Shown here piece after piece: positions 1 through 6,206 of a stretch of DNA of 6,206 nucleotides; positions within the stretch are counted from its first letter, which is position 1; each line of letters begins with the position of its first letter. The notes below the pieces were generated by a model. The model ran no database searches. It saw only the letters and a list, made by a program, of their open reading frames with translations, and was not told the DNA's origin. The stretch comes from a virus. Taxonomy: Duplodnaviria; Heunggongvirae; Uroviricota; Caudoviricetes. The position numbers and the translations under genes were made by a program. The stretch lies in IMG/VR virus record IMGVR_UViG_2740892234_000011; one strand, 5' to 3'.

Positions 1-425
1 GGATGATGTCAATCATCCAGGCGGCCAGATTCTGTTGAGCAAGTTGATCCAGTGAATCAGATGTCTGCTCCCGCAGCTGGTTGTCGCAGTGCCAGCACAA
101 CACCATCGCGCCGGTACCGTAACGGTGAATGACGGTTTCGCTGTGATGATAATCACCGTGTAGCCACTGGCAGGATTTCACGTGACGTAATAACCAGTCA
201 GACAGTGCACCAGCGCCACCCGCAGCACGGATCACCCGCTCATCGCTGAAAAATGGCAGTAGTGATTTATCTTCCGCCAGCGGCTGGTGAACGGCAGGTA
301 CAACCCCGGACGGCAGAGCTCGCATGCTTTTTGGTTCCGGCTCCACCAGTATTCTGCCGTTATGGAATGCTGACATTGATTCACGGCCTGGCTTAACGAT
401 AACCAGACCGAGTTCCGGTACCAGA
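1..425 (-). CDS. Partial CDS, copy A: lambdoid-prophage protein, YdfU-like (possibly DUF968); C-terminal side runs off the window start, N-terminal side cut by the N-gap
   Basis: Own minus-strand translation is open from 425 to 1: LVPELGLVIVKPGRESMSAFHNGRILVEPEPKSMRALPSGVVPAVHQPLAEDKSLLPFFSDERVIRAAGGAGALSDWLLRHVKSCQWLHGDYHHSETVIHRYGTGAMVLCWHCDNQLREQTSDSLDQLAQQNLAAWMIDII. Not in the ORF track because it has no stop inside the window. YdfU/DUF968 label is a context-and-memory guess. Confidence 0.55.
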
Positions 426-435
426 NNNNNNNNNN

Positions 436-759
436 ATGTATGACAGTTTCGCTGTGATGATAATCACCATGAGGCCACTGGCAGGATTTAACGTGACGTA
501 ATAACCAGTCAGACAGTGCACCAGCGCCACCAGCAGCACGAATCACACGCTCATTGCTGAAAAATGGCAGTAATGATTTATCTTCCGCCAGCGGCTGGCG
601 AACGGCAGGAACGACCCCGGACGGCAGATTACGCATGCTTTTCGGTTCAGACTCCACCAGCACCCTGCCGCCATGAAATACCCGCATGGATTCACGGCCT
701 GGCTTAACGATAACCAGACCGAGTTCCGGTACCAGAACAGGTCGAAGTAATACCCGCAC
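436..759 (-). CDS. Partial CDS, copy B: N-terminal part of the same YdfU-like protein; GTG start at 757-759, 3' side cut by the N-gap
   Basis: Frame reads VRVLLRPVLVPELGLVIVKPGRESMRVFHGGRVLVESEPKSMRNLPSGVVPAVRQPLAEDKSLLPFFSNERVIRAAGGAGALSDWLLRHVKSCQWPHGDYHHSETVIH, a diverged copy of block A. GGAGG lies 4 nt upstream of the GTG. The 232..759 track ORF is a chimera across the gap. Confidence 0.5.
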
Positions 760-761
760 AT

Positions 762-869
762 TACCTCCAGATCCGTTGCTGGAATGTGCGGGACGGACGC
801 GGTGGCCGTTCGGAGTAAGGGAGCCTGACGGAGATTATCCAGTGACGGTAGTCGAGGCTAAGGGCTTTT
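762..869 (-). CDS. Partial CDS: C-terminal 35 codons of a second copy of the small Arg/Cys-rich prophage protein (compare 992..1270), 5' side cut by the N-gap
   Basis: Minus-strand translation KALSLDYRHWIISVRLPYSERPPRPSRTFQQRIWR then TAA at 762-764; near-identical to the C-terminus of the 992..1270 product. Confidence 0.4.
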
Positions 870-879
870 NNNNNNNNNN

Positions 880-990
880 CGGCTCCACCAGTACCCGGGT
901 ATTGTGGAATACCGGCATGGATTCACGGCCCGGCTTAACGATCACCAGCCCGAGTTCCGGTACCAGAACAGGTCGAAGTAATACCCGCAC
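880..990 (-). CDS. Partial CDS, copy C: N-terminal 37 codons of the YdfU-like protein, 3' side cut by the N-gap
   Basis: GTG at 988-990 one nt after the upstream stop, GGAGG 4 nt upstream; translation VRVLLRPVLVPELGLVIVKPGRESMPVFHNTRVLVEP matches copies A and B. Confidence 0.45.
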
Positions 991-991
991 G

Positions 992-1270
992 TTACCTCCA
1001 GATGCGTTGCTGGAATGTGCGGGACGGACGCGGTGGGCGTTCGGAGTAAGGAAGCCTGACGGAGATTATCCAGTGACGGTAGTCGAGGCTAAGGGCTTTT
1101 TTAACCTCGCATCCGCGCCTGCGGTAACACTGAATGAGCCATTCGGCCTGTTCTTCAGTGCATGGGGGATGCTGGTACCAGTCAGATTTGAATGCGTGAA
1201 AACACCGTCCGCGCCTGCTGGCAAAGACGGCAGAATCATCAGAATTGTATAATTTGGTATCGTGCGCCAT
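992..1270 (-). CDS. Small Arg/Cys-rich prophage protein, 92 aa, in the position rem occupies next to hokD in the K-12 Qin prophage; function unknown
   Basis: ATG at 1268-1270, TAA at 992-994: MAHDTKLYNSDDSAVFASRRGRCFHAFKSDWYQHPPCTEEQAEWLIQCYRRRGCEVKKALSLDYRHWIISVRLPYSERPPRPSRTFQQRIWR. The track's TTG start at 1351 is rejected because it sits inside the terminator hairpin. Weak SD, so coding status is not certain. Confidence 0.45.
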   Translation of the reverse strand: MAHDTKLYNSDDSAVFASRRGRCFHAFKSDWYQHPPCTEEQAEWLIQCYRRRGCEVKKALSLDYRHWIISVRLPYSERPPRPSRTFQQRIWR

Positions 1271-1342
1271 CGGTTGTCTCTGCTGGCGCAGCAGGTGCCA
1301 GTTGTTCAGGCTGGCGTGCGAATTGTAAACCAGAATGCCAGG

Positions 1343-1370
1343 AAAAAACAAAACCCGCCGAAGCGGGTTA
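1343..1370 (-). terminator. Rho-independent terminator on the minus strand, belonging to an orphan hok-mRNA 3' end copy
   Basis: Stem acccgc(1353-1358), loop cgaa, stem gcgggt(1363-1368); on the minus strand followed by UUUUGUUUUUU (plus 1343-1352). Confidence 0.55.
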
Positions 1371-1446
1371 AGTGCGGGTGCGTTGAGGATGCCTGATTCA
1401 TCAGAGGTGGCGAGGGATTTCTCCCCCGCCGGGTCTCTTACTCCTC
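1371..1446 (-). promoter_or_regulatory. Orphan copy of a hok mRNA 3' UTR (fbi-like stem-loop region), truncated by the N-gap at 1447
   Basis: About 90% identical by eye to 1799-1867 immediately 3' of the hok stop; the stem ggcgaggga/tcccccgcc has one mismatch relative to the perfect stem at 1840-1861. Confidence 0.45.
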
Positions 1447-1674
1447 NNNNNNNNNNATAAAGTATAAATAAACTGGTTCCAGTGTAAAGCCCCTACATTA
1501 ATGGAATAAAAGTCAAACAACAGATTGTTGGGATAAACACAACGCTTATTATTAAAAGCGATTAGATAAATTAAATTTTAATGTTATGCAATTTTACCAG
1601 ATCACCATAACATCTCGTTTGAAACCACCGAAACAACAACCATATCAATATTGATTATGTTAAAGTGAGTAAAT

Positions 1675-1761
1675 ATGGAAAACAACAAATCTGCACATTA
1701 CGCTCCTTTTTTATCTGTGATACTTTTTGTTTTATGCTGTGTGTGGGCATTATTTTTATAA
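1675..1761 (+). CDS. Hypothetical small hydrophobic peptide, 28 aa, possible small membrane protein
   Basis: ATG 1675 to TAA 1759-1761: MENNKSAHYAPFLSVILFVLCCVWALFL, with one predicted transmembrane helix; partial SD GTGAG 6-7 nt upstream. Sits in an AT-rich non-coding stretch, so chance occurrence is quite possible. Confidence 0.2.
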   Translation: MENNKSAHYAPFLSVILFVLCCVWALFL

Positions 1762-1772
1762 AAATATTTACA

Positions 1773-1798
1773 GATAAAATAAACCCGCCGAAGCGGGT
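1773..1798 (-). terminator. Rho-independent terminator of the hok mRNA
   Basis: Stem acccgc / gcgggt with cgaa loop (1783-1798), followed on the minus strand by UUAUUUUAU (plus 1773-1782). Confidence 0.6.
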
Positions 1799-1867
1799 TA
1801 AGTGCGGGTGCATTGAGGATGCCTGACACATCAGAGGTGGCGAGGGATTTCTCCCTCGCCGGGTCTC
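1799..1867 (-). promoter_or_regulatory. hok mRNA 3' UTR with fbi-like stem-loop
   Basis: Perfect 9-bp inverted repeat ggcgaggga-tttc-tccctcgcc at 1840-1861 immediately 3' of the hok stop, in the position of the fold-back-inhibition element of plasmid R1 hok mRNA. Confidence 0.5.
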
Positions 1868-2023
1868 TTACTCCTCAGGTTCGTAAGCTGTGAAGACAGC
1901 GACCTCCGTCTGGCCGGTTCGGATTCGTACCTCGCAGAGGTCTTTCCTCGTTACCAGTGCCGTCACTATGACGGTTAAACAGATGACGATCAGGGCGATT
2001 AACATCGCCTTTTGCTGCTTCAT
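1868..2023 (-). CDS. hokD: Hok/Gef-family type I toxin, 51 aa, HokD/RelF-like
   Basis: ATG 2021-2023, TAA 1868-1870: MKQQKAMLIALIVICLTVIVTALVTRKDLCEVRIRTGQTEVAVFTAYEPEE. Single TM helix plus conserved C-terminal RKDLCEV..TGQTEVAVF..YE as in Gef/HokC and HokD. SD AAGGAG 9 nt upstream. Family is certain; the hokD-versus-hokC paralog call is from memory. Confidence 0.85.
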   Translation of the reverse strand: MKQQKAMLIALIVICLTVIVTALVTRKDLCEVRIRTGQTEVAVFTAYEPEE

Positions 2024-2080
2024 AGCCTGCTTCTCCTTGCCTTTCGGCACGTAAGAGGCTAACCTACGTTTGTGAAGCAT
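1868..2080 (-). CDS. mok-like reading frame, 70 aa, in-frame N-terminal extension of hok
   Basis: ATG at 2078-2080 gives MLHKRRLASYVPKGKEKQA followed by the complete Hok sequence, the same arrangement as mokC/hokC in E. coli K-12. Confidence 0.5.
   Translation of the reverse strand: MLHKRRLASYVPKGKEKQAMKQQKAMLIALIVICLTVIVTALVTRKDLCEVRIRTGQTEVAVFTAYEPEE
2037..2065 (+). promoter_or_regulatory. Putative sok antisense promoter
   Basis: -35 TTGCCT (2037-2042), 17-nt spacer, -10 TAACCT (2060-2065), antisense inside the mok N-terminal codons. Arrangement mirrors what I recall of the R1 sok promoter; not verified. Confidence 0.4.
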
Positions 2081-2150
2081 AGATTGGGCCTCAGATTAAT
2101 GTTAAGCGTCTTGCAGGACGCGTAATGTTAACTGGGGCTTTTCTCTGTCT
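2072..2150 (+). ncRNA. Putative Sok-like antisense RNA, complementary to the hok leader and mok start; ends approximate
   Basis: Starts just downstream of the putative -10, is complementary to the mok start/SD region, and contains a hairpin gcgtc-ttgcag-gacgc (2106-2121). The 3' end is not defined and the N-gap begins at 2154. Confidence 0.3.
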
Positions 2151-2153
2151 GCC
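2081..2153 (-). promoter_or_regulatory. hok mRNA 5' leader (mok-proximal part), truncated by the N-gap
   Basis: Minus-strand sequence GGCAGACAGAGAAAAGCCCCAG...GCAAGGAGAAGCAGGCTATG is collinear with what I recall of the R1 hok leader. Confidence 0.5.
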
Positions 2154-2163
2154 NNNNNNNNNN

Positions 2164-2284
2164 CAAAGCATGAAATTGGCCTCAGATTAATGTTAAGCGT
2201 CTTGCCGGACGCGTAATGTTAACTGGGGCTTTTCTCTATCTGCCTTTTGGTGTTCATGCCTGAGGCAGATAGCCTCAAGCACCC
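2164..2284 (-). promoter_or_regulatory. hok mRNA 5' leader, second copy, including the 5'-terminal hairpins; begins at a mok ATG (2169-2171) at the gap edge
   Basis: Minus strand reads GGGTGCTTGAGGCTATCTGCCTCAGGCATGAACACCAAAAGGCAGATAG...: a 5' hairpin GAGGC/GCCTC and a long-range stem ctatctgcc/ggcagatag, matching the 5' end of R1 hok mRNA as I recall it. Differs from block D at two positions in the 67 nt they share. Confidence 0.55.
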
Positions 2285-2290
2285 GCAGCA

Positions 2291-2319
2291 ATTCTAACTA
2301 TCCAATAGATCAATGCCAA
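2291..2319 (-). promoter_or_regulatory. Promoter of the hok mRNA
   Basis: On the minus strand: -35 TTGGCA (plus 2314-2319), exact 17-nt spacer, -10 TAGAAT (plus 2291-2296), about 7 nt upstream of the inferred hok mRNA 5' end near 2284. Confidence 0.6.
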
Positions 2320-2671
2320 CTTCTTTTCCTGCAACATCTCTCATCATAAGTGACCCAAATTCATCCAATCAGCACAAAAGAAACATTTAAAGCGTGAATG
2401 CTACCGAACGTTCATTTCAATTACATCGTTTTGATTTTTAACAGTTTTCACCTCAACAAATCAAATGGCATTAGCATTCATCATGGAAGAAAGACTGATA
2501 AAAATGATCATTTTCAATGACTTATGATCACACCGGGTATTGCCAAGTCATTCCTTTTACGCCAGGATACCCACAAGTGAGTAGTCGAGGAGAGTTTGCC
2601 AATTTTTGCGATATAAATTTCAATGTCCGAAGAACCATTAATTGTTAATTGATTCTGTATAAGGTATTAAC

Positions 2672-3769
2672 ATGACAATTTCATATATTCCTATTCTGAA
2701 AGCGAAACGTTCTGAGTTATCAGCTTTATCGCAGCTATCCATTGAAAAGAAATCAAAAATTTTGCCATTACTCGAAATTGAACCAGTGCCAATTGACCCT
2801 GATTCAGGTATTGCCTTAAAGAGTTATAACGAGACTCTTATAGAGTTCGGAAAGAAAGTCTCAAAATCTTGCTCAGATATGCAAGGTGTTTATATTGATG
2901 GATTATTAATTGAAGAGCATTTTATTTCTCCTGAAGATCATTACCCTATAATAAATGCGGTTAATCAAGTTAGAGATATGGGGATAAGAGTTATTCCTGT
3001 CAGTTCACCAACTCGCCCATCTAACTATAAAAGAGCGATTGATGAATTAATGCAGAATGAAATATGCTTGAGATTAACCACGTTAGATCTGGTTAACCCA
3101 CAATTAATAACGCATTACATTAATCATCTGGGAATTCCTTTATCAAATATTGATATAATTATTGACTTAAGAGATGAGTTAACCGAGGATAAAATTAATT
3201 CCGGCGAACTATATACTTTGGCAATGGGATTGATAAACAATCTGGCGCACCTCAATGAATACAGAAAAGTGATTCTTTCTGGGGGTTCATTTCCTACAGA
3301 TCTCAGTGATATTTCTGTTGGTCTATATTCTCAACCTCGAATCGAGTGGATTTTATGGCAGAGTTTAATGAATAGAAAAGAACTTGCCAGAAATGTGATT
3401 TATAGTGATTATGGAGTACAGCACCCCGACTTTAATAGGCTTTCGACGCGATTCCCTAGCGTATCTGCCAGCGTCAGATACTCTGGAGATAATGACTTTT
3501 GGGTATTTCGAGGAAGAGTAGCTAATCGCTTTGGTTATGAACAATATGGTAAACATAGTGAGGATATTCTTGCTCATCGAGAATATTCAGGGCCTACATT
3601 CTGTGCGGGAGATAGAGACATAGAATATTATGCAAACGAGTATCAAGCCTACAAAGCCAATCCCTCTGGTAACTATAAATTTGGTAGCCCAGAGGTATGG
3701 CGTAGGATTGGGCAAAACCATCACATAACTAAGGTTGTTGAGCAACTCGCCACTCTTTACGGGCTTTAA
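2672..3769 (+). CDS. Hypothetical protein, 365 aa, no family confidently assigned; candidate component of a two-gene defence module
   Basis: Single long ORF, ATG 2672 is the first start after an in-frame TAA at 2660-2662, stop TAA 3767-3769; AAGG 7 nt upstream. AT-rich codon usage unlike the flanking genes. Soluble-looking, only 3 Cys, no obvious Walker, HNH, HEPN or PD-(D/E)xK motif. N-terminus MTISYIPILKAKRSELSAL. Confidence 0.85.
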   Translation: MTISYIPILKAKRSELSALSQLSIEKKSKILPLLEIEPVPIDPDSGIALKSYNETLIEFGKKVSKSCSDMQGVYIDGLLIEEHFISPEDHYPIINAVNQVRDMGIRVIPVSSPTRPSNYKRAIDELMQNEICLRLTTLDLVNPQLITHYINHLGIPLSNIDIIIDLRDELTEDKINSGELYTLAMGLINNLAHLNEYRKVILSGGSFPTDLSDISVGLYSQPRIEWILWQSLMNRKELARNVIYSDYGVQHPDFNRLSTRFPSVSASVRYSGDNDFWVFRGRVANRFGYEQYGKHSEDILAHREYSGPTFCAGDRDIEYYANEYQAYKANPSGNYKFGSPEVWRRIGQNHHITKVVEQLATLYGL

Positions 3770-4307
3770 GTTTAACTCGAACAGCTTCACGAAGCTCGCC
3801 AACATCCATACTATTGGCGAGTTTTGACCATAAGACGCGTTTAGGTTTATTTTTCAAATTCTGTAGCTCCCCTACATCACTTAATAGGGAAAGCAATTCA
3901 TCTTTCCAAAGAAGCATTGTTAAGGAAAGTTTGTCCACTTGTGGATTCAACTTGCTAGTTCGAATTGTTTTTAAATGGATACCTTGCCGTGCACCTTGCG
4001 TAACTTGCTTTATCCCCCACCATGATGGAACTATGCTTAAAGCATCATAAAGATGGCAATCAGAGACAACCAAAGTTACTTTATCCATCACTGATGAGTA
4101 ATGTTGCACCTGCGCTGGTAATCTGAGCAAGTTATCACTCTTGCTCTTCAACTCATAACCATGTATAAGCCCATTGATCACTGCTATATCAGCTCTGCTA
4201 GCCCCTAGATTCATCGTAAACTCATCAATGATTAGGGTGTCAGGATCTTTATGATGATCTCTCAGAATCTTGGCATGCACAGCCTTTCTTACATCAATGT
4301 CTCTCAT
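3729..4307 (-). CDS. Hypothetical protein, 192 aa, with a PD-(D/E)xK nuclease-like signature; candidate effector of a two-gene defence module
   Basis: ATG 4305-4307 is the first start after an in-frame TGA; stop TAG 3729-3731. N-terminal region ...TLIIDEF TMNLGASRADIAVINGLIHGYELKSKSD gives E29, D40, E52-x-K54 in alternating hydrophobic strands, typical of the restriction-endonuclease fold. The C-terminal half looks helical. The 3' end overlaps the 365-aa CDS by 41 bp. Confidence 0.8.
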   Translation of the reverse strand: MRDIDVRKAVHAKILRDHHKDPDTLIIDEFTMNLGASRADIAVINGLIHGYELKSKSDNLLRLPAQVQHYSSVMDKVTLVVSDCHLYDALSIVPSWWGIKQVTQGARQGIHLKTIRTSKLNPQVDKLSLTMLLWKDELLSLLSDVGELQNLKNKPKRVLWSKLANSMDVGELREAVRVKLKARKEWRVAQQP

Positions 4308-4612
4308 ACCATAGTTGCGCTTTCATCGACTCTCTCAAGCCATGATTCTATATCATGGTTCGCATGAATGCCATTTGATATGACCAGTGGTTAAACATTG
4401 CACAGAAAAGTGGATGTGTATTTTAACAAAAGCAATGACGGCTAACCATGTTGGTATGTCGATAAAATGTTTCAACGTAAGCATTATCTGTTCCGCCCTT
4501 TCAGACGGTCTCCTGATGTTCTGAGGGTGCAGAATCCCTCCGGTTAAGGATTTAATAAAAATCGTTTCTGATTTAAATCTTCAGTATTTAGTTGTTAGTC
4601 GGTTTATAGCCT

Positions 4613-4924
4613 TTATGCTTCGGCCTTATTTCGCAACCAGACACAAACCGGGCCATCTTCCGTATCATGAATGGAACCAATAAACCAGCCATCGCCCTCT
4701 GGTCGTTCCGGTTCCCATGCAGAAATATCAGCATCACACGCATCAAGGTCAGCACATCCTTCATCTCTGAAGCAGAGGACGTATTGAAGATTATTTTCCT
4801 CCATCCAGGCGTTAAACTCTTCCGTTGAAATATATTCCCGACCGTCACAGAATTTTTCATATTCAGGATGCGTCCAGCAGCCATATTCATCACGTACTAC
4901 TGGTGTTTCTTTAATTTCATTCAT
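4613..4924 (-). CDS. Hypothetical acidic prophage protein, 103 aa
   Basis: MNEIKETPVVRDEYGCWTHPEYEKFCDGREYISTEEFNAWMEENNLQYVLCFRDEGCADLDACDADISAWEPERPEGDGWFIGSIHDTEDGPVCVWLRNKAEA. Its start overlaps the stop of the upstream gene (4917-4924), and GC content is typical of the prophage backbone. Confidence 0.7.
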   Translation of the reverse strand: MNEIKETPVVRDEYGCWTHPEYEKFCDGREYISTEEFNAWMEENNLQYVLCFRDEGCADLDACDADISAWEPERPEGDGWFIGSIHDTEDGPVCVWLRNKAEA

Positions 4925-5171
4925 TTCTGTTCTCCCACGTTTTCAGACTTTCACCACAGAACGGACAAAATGAAACCCGAACTGGTAATTTAGAAAATTC
5001 ACCGGAACGCAACATCACAAAATCAGGACCGCGAGTTAAACTCTCATTCCAGATTTTGTATATCAGCAGACCTTTTCGCATCGTGTATTCAGCATCATGC
5101 TCAAGGGACTTTGCCAGTGCTGCACATGGTTCTATCTTGTTGCCATTAACCTGGCATTTTGATTCACTCAC
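4917..5171 (-). CDS. Hypothetical small Cys-containing prophage protein, 84 aa, possible zinc-ribbon
   Basis: MSESKCQVNGNKIEPCAALAKS...VSFCPFCGESLKTWENRNE with Cys at 6, 16, 69 and 72 (CPFC). Its start overlaps the Ren-like stop by 4 nt. Confidence 0.65.
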   Translation of the reverse strand: MSESKCQVNGNKIEPCAALAKSLEHDAEYTMRKGLLIYKIWNESLTRGPDFVMLRSGEFSKLPVRVSFCPFCGESLKTWENRNE

Positions 5172-5590
5172 CGCACCACCTCCTCAAAATTCCCCTGATA
5201 AAACGCCAGTACGCGCTGCATAACTTCGCTCTTCCGGCACTCGAGACAGATTATGTTCAGACGCCTGTCGTAGCGGCGTATTTCGCCATCTGGTAATGAC
5301 CAGATAAGGTCCGGATCAACCGCAGATGGTTTCTTCAGCTTTGCCCTTGAGAGTTTTTTGCGGGCATTTTGCCAGTCTTTACGAGCCTGTTCAGACGGGA
5401 ATAACCCGTAGCCAGAATTGTATACATCGCCACTGGCAACCAGCTCTCTGGCCAGAACGCTCATCAGATATCTTGTTGCCCCAGTTTTAGTTTCCAGTTG
5501 TCGTAACGTCTCGCGCCCACTCTGGCGTACGAGTTCAACAACCTGCCCTTTAATTTTTTCCCGCTCTTCTTGTGTAAAAACTTTTGCCAC
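5168..5590 (-). CDS. Lambda Ren-like protein, 140 aa
   Basis: GTG start 5588-5590 with AGGAGG 4 nt upstream. The C-terminus CLECRKSEVMQRVLAFYQG resembles the lambda Ren C-terminus FKECRQSAAMKRVLAVYG as I recall it, and ETKTGATRY resembles Ren AALTGATV. Position downstream of replication genes matches lambda ren. Confidence 0.7.
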   Translation of the reverse strand: MAKVFTQEEREKIKGQVVELVRQSGRETLRQLETKTGATRYLMSVLARELVASGDVYNSGYGLFPSEQARKDWQNARKKLSRAKLKKPSAVDPDLIWSLPDGEIRRYDRRLNIICLECRKSEVMQRVLAFYQGNFEEVVR

Positions 5591-5737
5591 AAGCCCTCCT
5601 GAAAATTACCCCATGACCTGAAATCTGTTACCCTCTGAATCCCGGCGGAATTTCGGTGTCCGGTTCAGAAATATGATTAACACAACGCTGGTTGTTCGTG
5701 CCGCTTACCGGGAGCAACCAGGGGTTTNNNNNNNNNN

Positions 5738-5971
5738 CTCCTGCTCTCACGACAAATTATGTTCTGGTGCCTGTCGTAGCGGCGTATTTCGCCGTCTGGT
5801 AACGACCAGATAAGGTCCGGATCAACCACTGCAGGTTTCTTCAGCTTTGCCCTTGAGAGCTTTTTACGGGTATTTTGCCAGTCCTTACGCGCCTGTTCAG
5901 ACGGGAATAACCCGTAACCAGAGTTGTATACATCGCCACTGGCAACCAGCTCTCTGGCCAGAACGCTCATC
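5738..5971 (-). CDS. Partial CDS: internal fragment of a second, diverged Ren-like gene copy, bounded by N-gaps on both sides
   Basis: Translation MSVLARELVASGDVYNSGYGLFPSEQARKDWQNTRKKLSRAKLKKPAVVDPDLIWSLPDGEIRRYDRHQNIICRESR parallels residues 44-120 of the 5168..5590 product with several substitutions. Confidence 0.45.
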
Positions 5972-5981
5972 NNNNNNNNNN

Positions 5982-6206
5982 AGCCAGGTATCTTGTGTAA
6001 CGCCTCACACCATCCAGCATGGCCTCTGGTGGCACCCCCTCGCGTAATCTGGCCTTCCAGGCACTGAAAGCGGATTTCTTCGGGTTTGCCCCGGCTCGTA
6101 ACGGGTATTCCCGCCAGACCTGCTCGAACACATCCGGATAATCCACTCGTCCCACAGGCTGCCCGGTGTTTTCCGGGACTACCCGATCGGCTTCCCGCTG
6201 AATGGC
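5982..6206 (-). CDS. Partial CDS, truncated at both ends: prophage early-region protein, probably replication-associated
   Basis: Minus-strand frame open from the window end to the gap: AIQREADRVVPENTGQPVGRVDYPDVFEQVWREYPLRAGANPKKSAFSAWKARLREGVPPEAMLDGVRRYTRYLA. No family recognised with confidence. Confidence 0.45.

Follow-up and report, generated by a model that had tools for sequence, protein, structure and literature searches.

The hok/sok locus (parB) of plasmid R1 encodes a stable hok mRNA that is processed slowly at its 3' end and an unstable antisense RNA, Sok, whose duplex with the mRNA is cut by RNase III (PMC9841398). This locus sits on a plasmid, and its documented role is post-segregational killing. 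A prophage counterpart, hokW/mokW/sokW of Stx2 phage 933W (Sakai Sp5), has been characterised as a functional type I system with a partial dependence on RNase III and Hfq; upon RecA-dependent prophage induction SokW disappears, HokW appears and phage release is doubled (PMC8621323). The hok loci of Escherichia coli K-12 are described as inactive, and the chromosomal loci of natural isolates as active, in a passage of PMC1635323 that cites Pedersen & Gerdes 1999.

The stretch of viral DNA analysed here (the window; 6,206 nt of the Caudoviricetes record IMGVR_UViG_2740892234_000011) carries a cassette of the same kind. It is very probably a standard hok/mok/sok type I toxin-antitoxin module of lambda-like prophages, of the hokD/hokW type and already known. 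The initial annotation had taken positions 1773-2319 as one intact, contiguous locus, and this is not the case: the window presents ∼120 nt from the 5' end of one allele followed by ∼375 nt from the 3' end of another.

Elements of the cassette and their relatives

The elements of the cassette are listed with their coordinates in the window.

2319..2291, minus strand: hok promoter, TTGGCA-17-TAGAAT, agreeing with the consensus at 10/12 positions
2284..2273, minus strand: tac (GGGUGCUUGAGG), mRNA nt 1-12; by homology, the putative 5' end of the hok mRNA
2282..2256, minus strand: local 5' hairpin of the predicted fold, tac nt 3-13 with nt 19-29
2080..1868, minus strand: mok frame (from the list of open reading frames), 70 codons, an N-terminal extension in frame with hok
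∼2072-2142, plus strand: predicted Sok RNA, ∼71 nt, allele A, by homology to the sokW misc_RNA of 933W
2037-2065, plus strand: sok promoter, TTGCCT-17-TAACCT, inside mok
2023..1868, minus strand: hok toxin gene, 51 aa (PF01848)
1818..1806, minus strand: fbi, CCUCAA-U-GCACCC, 48 nt past the hok stop codon, partner of tac
1799..1773, minus strand: intrinsic terminator, AACCCGC-UUCG-GCGGGUU (hairpin 1799..1782) with a U-rich tail

The toxin is a small hydrophobic protein of the Hok/Gef family, matching PF01848 (HOK_GEF) with 82.9 bits (cut-off 22). It falls in PHROG 251 ('MokW-like host killing') and is identical residue for residue to HokD/RelF of K-12, while none of the PADLOC models matches it. 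The SD of hok, AAGGAG at 2038..2033, lies 9 nt ahead of the hok ATG. The overlapping mok frame has its own SD, GAGG, 8 nt upstream of the mok ATG, and its layout is that of the annotated mokW and of the R1-type locus. The promoter, the mok-like frame, the 51-aa Hok with its SD and the terminator of the initial annotation are all found where it had placed them, and the hok/mok/sok type I identity that it proposed is borne out by Pfam, Rfam, alignment to R1 and 933W, and covariation in 39 diverse loci.

The hokW/mokW/sokW cassette of 933W has the same architecture and order of elements, with 93.4% nucleotide identity. HokW is 92% identical to the Hok of the window, the sok promoter is identical and the tac/fbi offset is the same. 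The two cassettes differ at the Hok C-terminus (VFTAYEPEE in the window versus VFVDYESEK in 933W), in the Sok 5' tail, in mok codons 2-5, and in the -35 and upstream flank. Their positions differ too: the cassette of the window is flanked by cargo genes and DUF968, close to the Q region, and that of 933W is located towards the end of the record. Closer still in sequence is the mok/hok of Rac-SA53, with 96.8% nucleotide identity to the unit.

Homology to R1 hok/sok takes in tac, the 5' hairpin, ucb, the mok SD, the in-frame mok, the sok promoter inside mok, the hok SD and fbi, every element being in the same order; the leader had been read from the outset as having the 5' hairpin and long-range stem of R1. 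R1 Hok, however, is only 43% identical to the Hok of the window, and R1 has a longer first hairpin, a shorter Sok-complementary hairpin, and a different fbi offset and bulge.

In K-12, the Qin prophage retains a hokD (relF) remnant. This remnant encodes an identical Hok, is nearly identical in its coding region, its 3' UTR, fbi and the terminator, and shares the DUF968 (ydfU) and Q side of the neighbourhood. Its homology begins only ∼20 nt before the hok ATG, where relBE replaces the promoter, tac, the mok start and sok, all of which are retained by the loci underlying the window. The contrast that had been drawn with the inactive K-12 loci is real in this respect, but it has long been known, as a passage in PMC1635323 indicates.

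The -10 of the hok promoter aligns with its counterparts in 933W, Rac-SA53 and R1. In most phage copies, homology to the query begins only at about this -10 (query position 65), which indicates that the hok -35 derives from the variable flank. The putative transcription start, placed by the start of the Rfam model and the R1 alignment, falls 7 nt past the -10, and most of the loci scanned have kept the tac motif that follows. Weak Rfam matches at the two hok terminators of the window, to isrK (27 bits, gathering score 50) and rsmX (21.7 bits, gathering score 56), are terminator look-alikes. The hok terminator is also usable from the plus strand.

An intact prophage copy had been presented as worthy of note. 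At least 80% of the 415-nt unit is present in 4018/5426 complete E. coli genomes, about three quarters, and full-length units occupy a median of 2 places per genome, with a maximum of 9. In IMG/VR there are at least 576 relatives of this Hok, of which 80 loci, all encoding an identical Hok, were kept. With hokW/mokW/sokW annotated in 933W and hokW-sokW validated experimentally (PMC8621323), an intact copy is not exceptional. The cassette is among the commonest small mobile modules in E. coli, a near-identical relative is characterised, and its presence here has little biological import.

Two prophage copies joined at a scaffold gap

The leader of hok is interrupted in the window by a run of 10 N, and the following features bear on how this region was assembled.

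2154..2163: scaffold gap of 10 N, within the leader of hok
2244..2164, minus strand: allele-B leader copy, ending at the contig end and 100% identical to NZ_CP027544; it holds ucb (2229..2223), the Sok-body-complementary hairpin, the mok SD (2183..2180) and the mok ATG (2171..2169) plus 5 nt
2153..2075, minus strand: allele-A leader copy, with ucb (2138..2132), the mok SD GAGG (2092..2089) and the mok ATG (2080..2078)
1446..1346, minus strand: part of a third hok locus from another prophage copy, truncated at the 1447 gap and comprising the final codons, the 3' UTR, fbi and the terminator

A direct repeat flanks the gap (2075-2153 and 2166-2244; 79 nt, 92% identical), and with the duplicate the leader exceeds that of every homologue by 91 nt. 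In the printed sequence 257 nt separate the conserved GCTTGAGG motif from the hok ATG downstream, compared with 165-166 nt in the nearest relatives and 137-178 nt in all motif-bearing loci fetched except two outliers.

Taken at face value, the duplicate would be a true 91-nt tandem duplication of the leader, making this a naturally disrupted variant in which the Sok-complementary hairpin is longer and regulation is probably disabled or altered. The duplicate is indeed present in the window as printed, and Infernal still aligns the duplicated leader if it is allowed a 110-nt insertion. Such a duplication is nevertheless extremely improbable. The insertion in the RF01794 alignment opens exactly at the gap, and the copies are parted by exactly 10 N, as at five other joins in the window: there are six 10-N runs in all, every one flanked by direct repeats 90-94% identical. 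The Sok-target allele on one side of the gap is not that on the other; either allele occurs on its own in other genomes, and the hybrid obtained by an in-register join has no second instance among the 90 loci examined.

BLAST searches with the seven N-delimited pieces of the window lead to the same reading. The contig 2164-5727, which carries the hok promoter, is 100% identical to NZ_CP027544 (E. coli 2013C-3264). The piece 1457-2153 is 98.6% identical to the same genome, in whose coordinates, where the locus is single-copy and contiguous, it overlaps the first by 81 nt; its ten differences all lie at or beyond position 1967. The latter contig begins in a 2013C-3264-type prophage and drifts, via the conserved coding region, into another hok copy. 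A search of 166 fetched loci found no exact source for it (the best match was 98.4%), which is consistent with the contig being a hybrid of two copies. A third partial copy at 1346-1446 is 94% identical to 1776-1876, and its hok 3' end directly follows the DUF968-side flank.

The printed layout is an artefact, in which two contigs from different prophage copies, overlapping in the leader, were abutted with 10 N. The window as a whole is a mosaic in which contigs derived from repeats, in a strain that carries several lambdoid prophages, have been put in the order of a reference, and features that span an N-run in it are not to be read as real junctions. The hok allele that adjoins the cargo is unreadable in the window because its hok-proximal part has been replaced by the other copy; it is presumably that of the complete genome, which is 100% identical over 3.5 kb.

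The contiguous locus and its prophage setting

Collapsing the leader duplicate restores a canonical hok transcript of 415 nt, from 2284 to ∼1779. Uninterrupted copies of the collapsed 1153-nt region are present in 8 complete genomes, with 99.6% identity in NZ_CP027544, where the locus is annotated as hokD and adjoins a 'beta family protein'. The mok frame is open in this allele as well. To judge from its sequence, the contiguous locus in NZ_CP027544 is intact and has the full regulatory set: promoter, tac, mok start and sok are all kept.

The setting in NZ_CP027544 is that of a lambdoid prophage: cI/Cro, YdaT, replication genes, DUF977, sce7726, the beta protein, hok, DUF968, RusA and Q. The neighbours of hok on the cargo side give matches to two PADLOC models, PD-Lambda-2_C and 'cll', and to the sce7726 family.

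Folding of the hok mRNA

The pairing that closes the mRNA is formed by nt 1-12 (2284..2273) with 1818..1806, giving 12 bp with one bulged U. In the collapsed 415-nt mRNA the minimum-energy and centroid folds are identical and pair nt 1-12 with nt 376-388 (-174.8 kcal/mol, z=-9.7). A perfect 9-bp fbi-like stem had been proposed earlier; it exists in the DNA (TGCGGGTGC, 2287..2279, with GCACCCGCA, 1811..1803), but the tac-fbi pairing conserved in the family is a different one, and 3/9 pairs of the proposed stem lie upstream of the homology-based +1.

Conservation of the tac-fbi pairing extends well beyond E. coli. In most of 62 unique loci, which span at least eight enterobacterial genera (among them Escherichia, Photorhabdus, Kluyvera, Pantoea, Erwinia and Enterobacter), the best partner of the first 12 nt within the 3' UTR lies 44-56 nt past the hok stop codon. 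The two strands of the pairing change in a compensatory way among these loci (GGGUGC/GCACCC, GGGCGC/GCGCCC and GAGA/UCUC; U4-A versus C4-G, G12-C versus A12-U); the long-range pairing is thus both present and covarying. When the structure is projected on an alignment of 39 sequences, paired cells make up 77.2%, compared with 37-45% for slid partners, and 48 pairs are changed on both sides, compared with 21-31. Pair 4/461 of this alignment is C-G in 21 sequences, U-A in 11 and U-G in 3. When the minimum-energy fold of the window is projected on the MAFFT alignment, the outer half of tac/fbi scores poorly, because the bulge shifts the register between subfamilies; the duplex search sequence by sequence is more informative.

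In the minimum-energy fold the mok SD (nt 102-105) is paired to ucb at the base of the long Sok-complementary hairpin, through GCC.CAG (nt 56-62) with CUG.GGC (nt 100-106), and is thereby sequestered. This helix-5 base is kept by 34-39 of the 39 sequences, one of its pairs being split into 17 G-C versus 16 A-U with zero half-changes.

The local tac hairpin is predicted in nascent fragments of 30 and 45 nt and in the 3'-truncated mRNA (duplex -18.3 kcal/mol), and it fits the metastable structure described for R1 hok mRNA (PMC9841398). Alternative duplexes of tac with ucb (-10.7 kcal/mol) and of the SD with dcb (-9.3 kcal/mol) are predicted to be possible, although off the predicted optimum. Minimum-energy folds of the 3'-truncated mRNA yield only the local tac hairpin; the open conformation of the literature, in which the mok SD is free, is not recovered. 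The elements and the possible alternative pairings are those described for R1 hok mRNA (PMC9841398).

The predicted Sok antisense RNA

A sok-like promoter on the plus strand inside mok had been proposed, and it is present at 2037-2065. It shares positions with the hok SD and with dcb, GCCUC (2059..2055). The sequence ahead of the annotated sokW in 933W is identical to it, and TTGCGC-17-TATCCT of the R1-type locus is its positional homologue. Mutation of the sokW -10 abolishes antitoxin activity and unmasks the toxicity of HokW, and Sok supplied in trans rescues partly; the primers of that study replace precisely the matching -10 region (PMC8621323). The -10, TAACCT, agrees with the consensus at only 3/6 positions, although the sokW promoter of the same sequence works. 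A generic promoter scan found 4 promoter-like sites versus 3.7 expected in shuffles, i.e. no enrichment; it caught the hok promoter and missed the sok promoter, and is uninformative either way. Taken together, however, the elements exceed chance by a wide margin, as the Rfam match (E=8e-25) and the fold of the collapsed mRNA (z=-9.7) show.

The predicted Sok RNA consists of a ∼13-nt single-stranded 5' tail and a long imperfect hairpin, followed by a U-tract, GGGGCUUUU, and is complementary to nt 52-122 of the hok mRNA. At the level of sequence, a putative cis-encoded antisense RNA gene is complete here, from its promoter in mok through tail and hairpin to the terminal UUUU.

The Rfam match named 'sok antitoxin (CssrC)', RF01794, should not be mistaken for this gene. 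In the window it runs from 2284 to 2018 (108.8 bits, E=8e-25, with the 110-nt insertion), on the hok-sense strand, from tac to the hok AUG over 157 model positions; on the contiguous locus of NZ_CP027544 it reaches 119.8 bits without the insertion, both scores being above the gathering score. RF01794 in effect models the hok leader and not the ∼71-nt Sok of the opposite strand, and a match to it marks the leader rather than a Sok gene.

Mechanism and role

By analogy with its relatives, the sigma-70 promoter would drive a stable hok mRNA, ∼415 nt long in the real unit. The pairing of tac with fbi would close this mRNA, with ucb meanwhile sequestering the mok SD. On the R1 model, slow trimming of the 3' end would strip fbi; tac would then refold locally and the mok SD and the small target hairpin would become exposed, leading to translation of mok and to the coupled translation of Hok, a 51-aa membrane toxin. 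A constitutive, unstable Sok of ∼71 nt, made from the opposite-strand promoter inside mok, would pair over the mok start, and the mRNA would be blocked or destroyed. Homology, the order of the elements, predicted structure and covariation are what the present sequence shows, and the processing, the instability of Sok and the toxicity are in this scheme carried over from R1 and hokW-sokW; neutralisation of Hok toxicity by the cognate Sok has been shown for the 93%-identical hokW-sokW (PMC8621323).

The most likely role of the cassette, drawn by analogy, is in the timing of lysis: on prophage induction Sok would be lost, and Hok would damage the inner membrane, hastening lysis and phage release. 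The experimental basis is one study of one homologue, hokW-sokW. Prophage stabilisation (addiction) would then likely be a by-product.

Addiction may instead be the primary function, with cells killed when they lose the prophage or the segment that carries the cassette. R1 hok/sok is a classical case of post-segregational killing (PMC9841398, PMC1635323), the abundance of chromosomal hok copies has been read as consistent with genetic stabilisation (PMC1635323), and the present unit is very widespread, in up to 9 places per genome. Several copies would, on the other hand, blunt addiction if the Sok RNAs of co-resident paralogues cross-neutralise, and a primary addiction role is possible but somewhat unlikely. 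Divergence of Sok-tail alleles would argue against such cross-neutralisation.

The reported exclusion of phage T4 by hok/sok had been put forward as a tie between the cassette and the adjacent cargo. The corresponding function would be abortive infection or phage exclusion, in which transcription shut-off by a T4-like phage depletes Sok and frees Hok, making the cassette a functional partner of the defence-like cargo with its PADLOC and sce7726 matches. With R1 hok/sok on a high-copy plasmid, the plating efficiency of T4 fell 42% and its plaques were ∼85% smaller, as summarised in PMC8621323; the effect is modest and, in that summary, reported only at high copy number. The hok cassette of other phages adjoins many different, unrelated neighbours, so that its linkage to this cargo is non-specific, and the sole experiment on a prophage copy indicates help to the resident phage (PMC8621323). 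Exclusion as the main function is therefore quite unlikely, and the tie to the cargo is thematic only.

Variation in the Sok tail

Diversity per alignment column across 90 hokD-type loci, of which 76 are unique, is highest at mRNA nt 105-128, in a sample whose selection for an identical Hok depresses diversity in the coding region. These nucleotides form the top and loop of the small mok-AUG hairpin and are the complement of the Sok 5' tail. In prophage copies that are otherwise >95% identical, this top and loop are the only strongly varying part. At least 10 Sok-tail alleles can be distinguished, most of which still fold into a hairpin, and the Rfam consensus has a stem at the same place.

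Predicted duplexes between tail and target are far more stable for cognate pairs (-32 to -35 kcal/mol) than for non-cognate pairs (-11 to -19.5 kcal/mol). Two tail alleles co-occur in the present assembly, and co-resident loci usually differ in tail allele, in a handful of genomes with more than one fetched locus that is too small for statistics. Selection in polylysogens for Sok/hok pairs that are orthogonal to one another could underlie the diversity, a tentative and rather doubtful proposal. If it is true, each prophage would keep its own trigger or addiction and would not be silenced by the Sok of its neighbour. A literature search for earlier discussion of Sok-tail hypervariability returned only noise, which does not establish its absence from the literature. 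The diversity of Sok-tail alleles poses a cheap and testable question on cross-talk among co-resident type I systems. The 3' UTR is also fairly variable among hokD-type loci.

Assembly of the window

The whole window (1-6206) is a mosaic of seven contigs linked by 10-N runs (426-435, 870-879, 1447-1456, 2154-2163, 5728-5737 and 5972-5981). Each join is bordered by repeats with 90-94% identity, in which different prophages contribute variant copies of their DUF968, hok and DUF977 regions. Window positions 2164-5727 and 5982-6206 are 100% identical to the complete genome of E. coli 2013C-3264 (NZ_CP027544), in which the hok locus is contiguous; the remaining contigs have 86-98.6% identity to this genome and show overlaps in its coordinates. 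The junctions spanning the N-runs are not real. The following features lie in the window:

1346-1446, minus strand: fragment of a third hok locus, comprising its 3' end with the final codons, fbi and the terminator; belongs to another prophage copy
1675-1761, plus strand: unannotated 28-codon ORF, MENNKSAHYAPFLSVILFVLCCVWALFL, with an SD-like GTGAG
2018-2284, minus strand: match to Rfam RF01794 'sok antitoxin'
2672-3769, plus strand: Beta_protein gene (PF14350; PADLOC PD-Lambda-2_C, 140 bits)
3729-4307, minus strand: sce7726-family protein gene (NCBIfam, 191 bits; PADLOC 'cll')

The prophage copy behind the third hok fragment lacks the AT-rich 1457-1770 segment. An Rfam isrK match on this fragment (27 bits, sub-threshold) was rejected, being just the hok terminator.

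Diversity and extent of the hok cassette

Among cassette copies more than 95% identical, variability peaks at the 5' tail of Sok, the predicted antisense RNA, and at its target, the mok-start hairpin of the hok mRNA leader (window 2066-2092 and 2164-2183; loci L086-L165). There are at least 10 alleles, two of them present together in the window's assembly, and the cognate tail-target duplexes are predicted to be ∼13-20 kcal/mol more stable than the non-cognate ones.

The RF01794 matches, both on the minus, hok-sense strand (2018-2284 in the window, 6562-6737 in the comparison locus L001), run from the 5' end of the hok mRNA to the hok AUG. The family therefore marks the hok leader and not the ∼71-nt Sok gene opposite, and annotations based on it would be wrong in both strand and extent.

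In most phage copies, homology to the cassette sets in around the hok -10 (position 65 of the query; window 2291-2330). The -35 and all sequence upstream derive from the variable flank, and the mobile unit appears to extend roughly from the -10 to the terminator.

Neighbouring genes

The 28-codon ORF converges on hok, and the two share a bidirectional terminator. Against NZ_CP024245 it has three differences in 87 nt, compared with about 15 in the preceding ∼75 nt. Its product, which may be a small membrane protein, had no match in Pfam, NCBIfam or PHROG. The overlapping, convergent Beta_protein and sce7726 genes adjoin hok and are probably defence-type cargo; PADLOC matched only one PD-Lambda-2 component.

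Records from other taxa

E. coli-type hok loci, identical or nearly so, also occur in records titled Veillonella (a MAG), Acinetobacter, Xanthomonas, Streptomyces, Ferruginibacter and Oscillibacter (L015, L025, L031, L063-L065). Most are on short contigs, and contamination or mis-binning of the assemblies is the most likely explanation.
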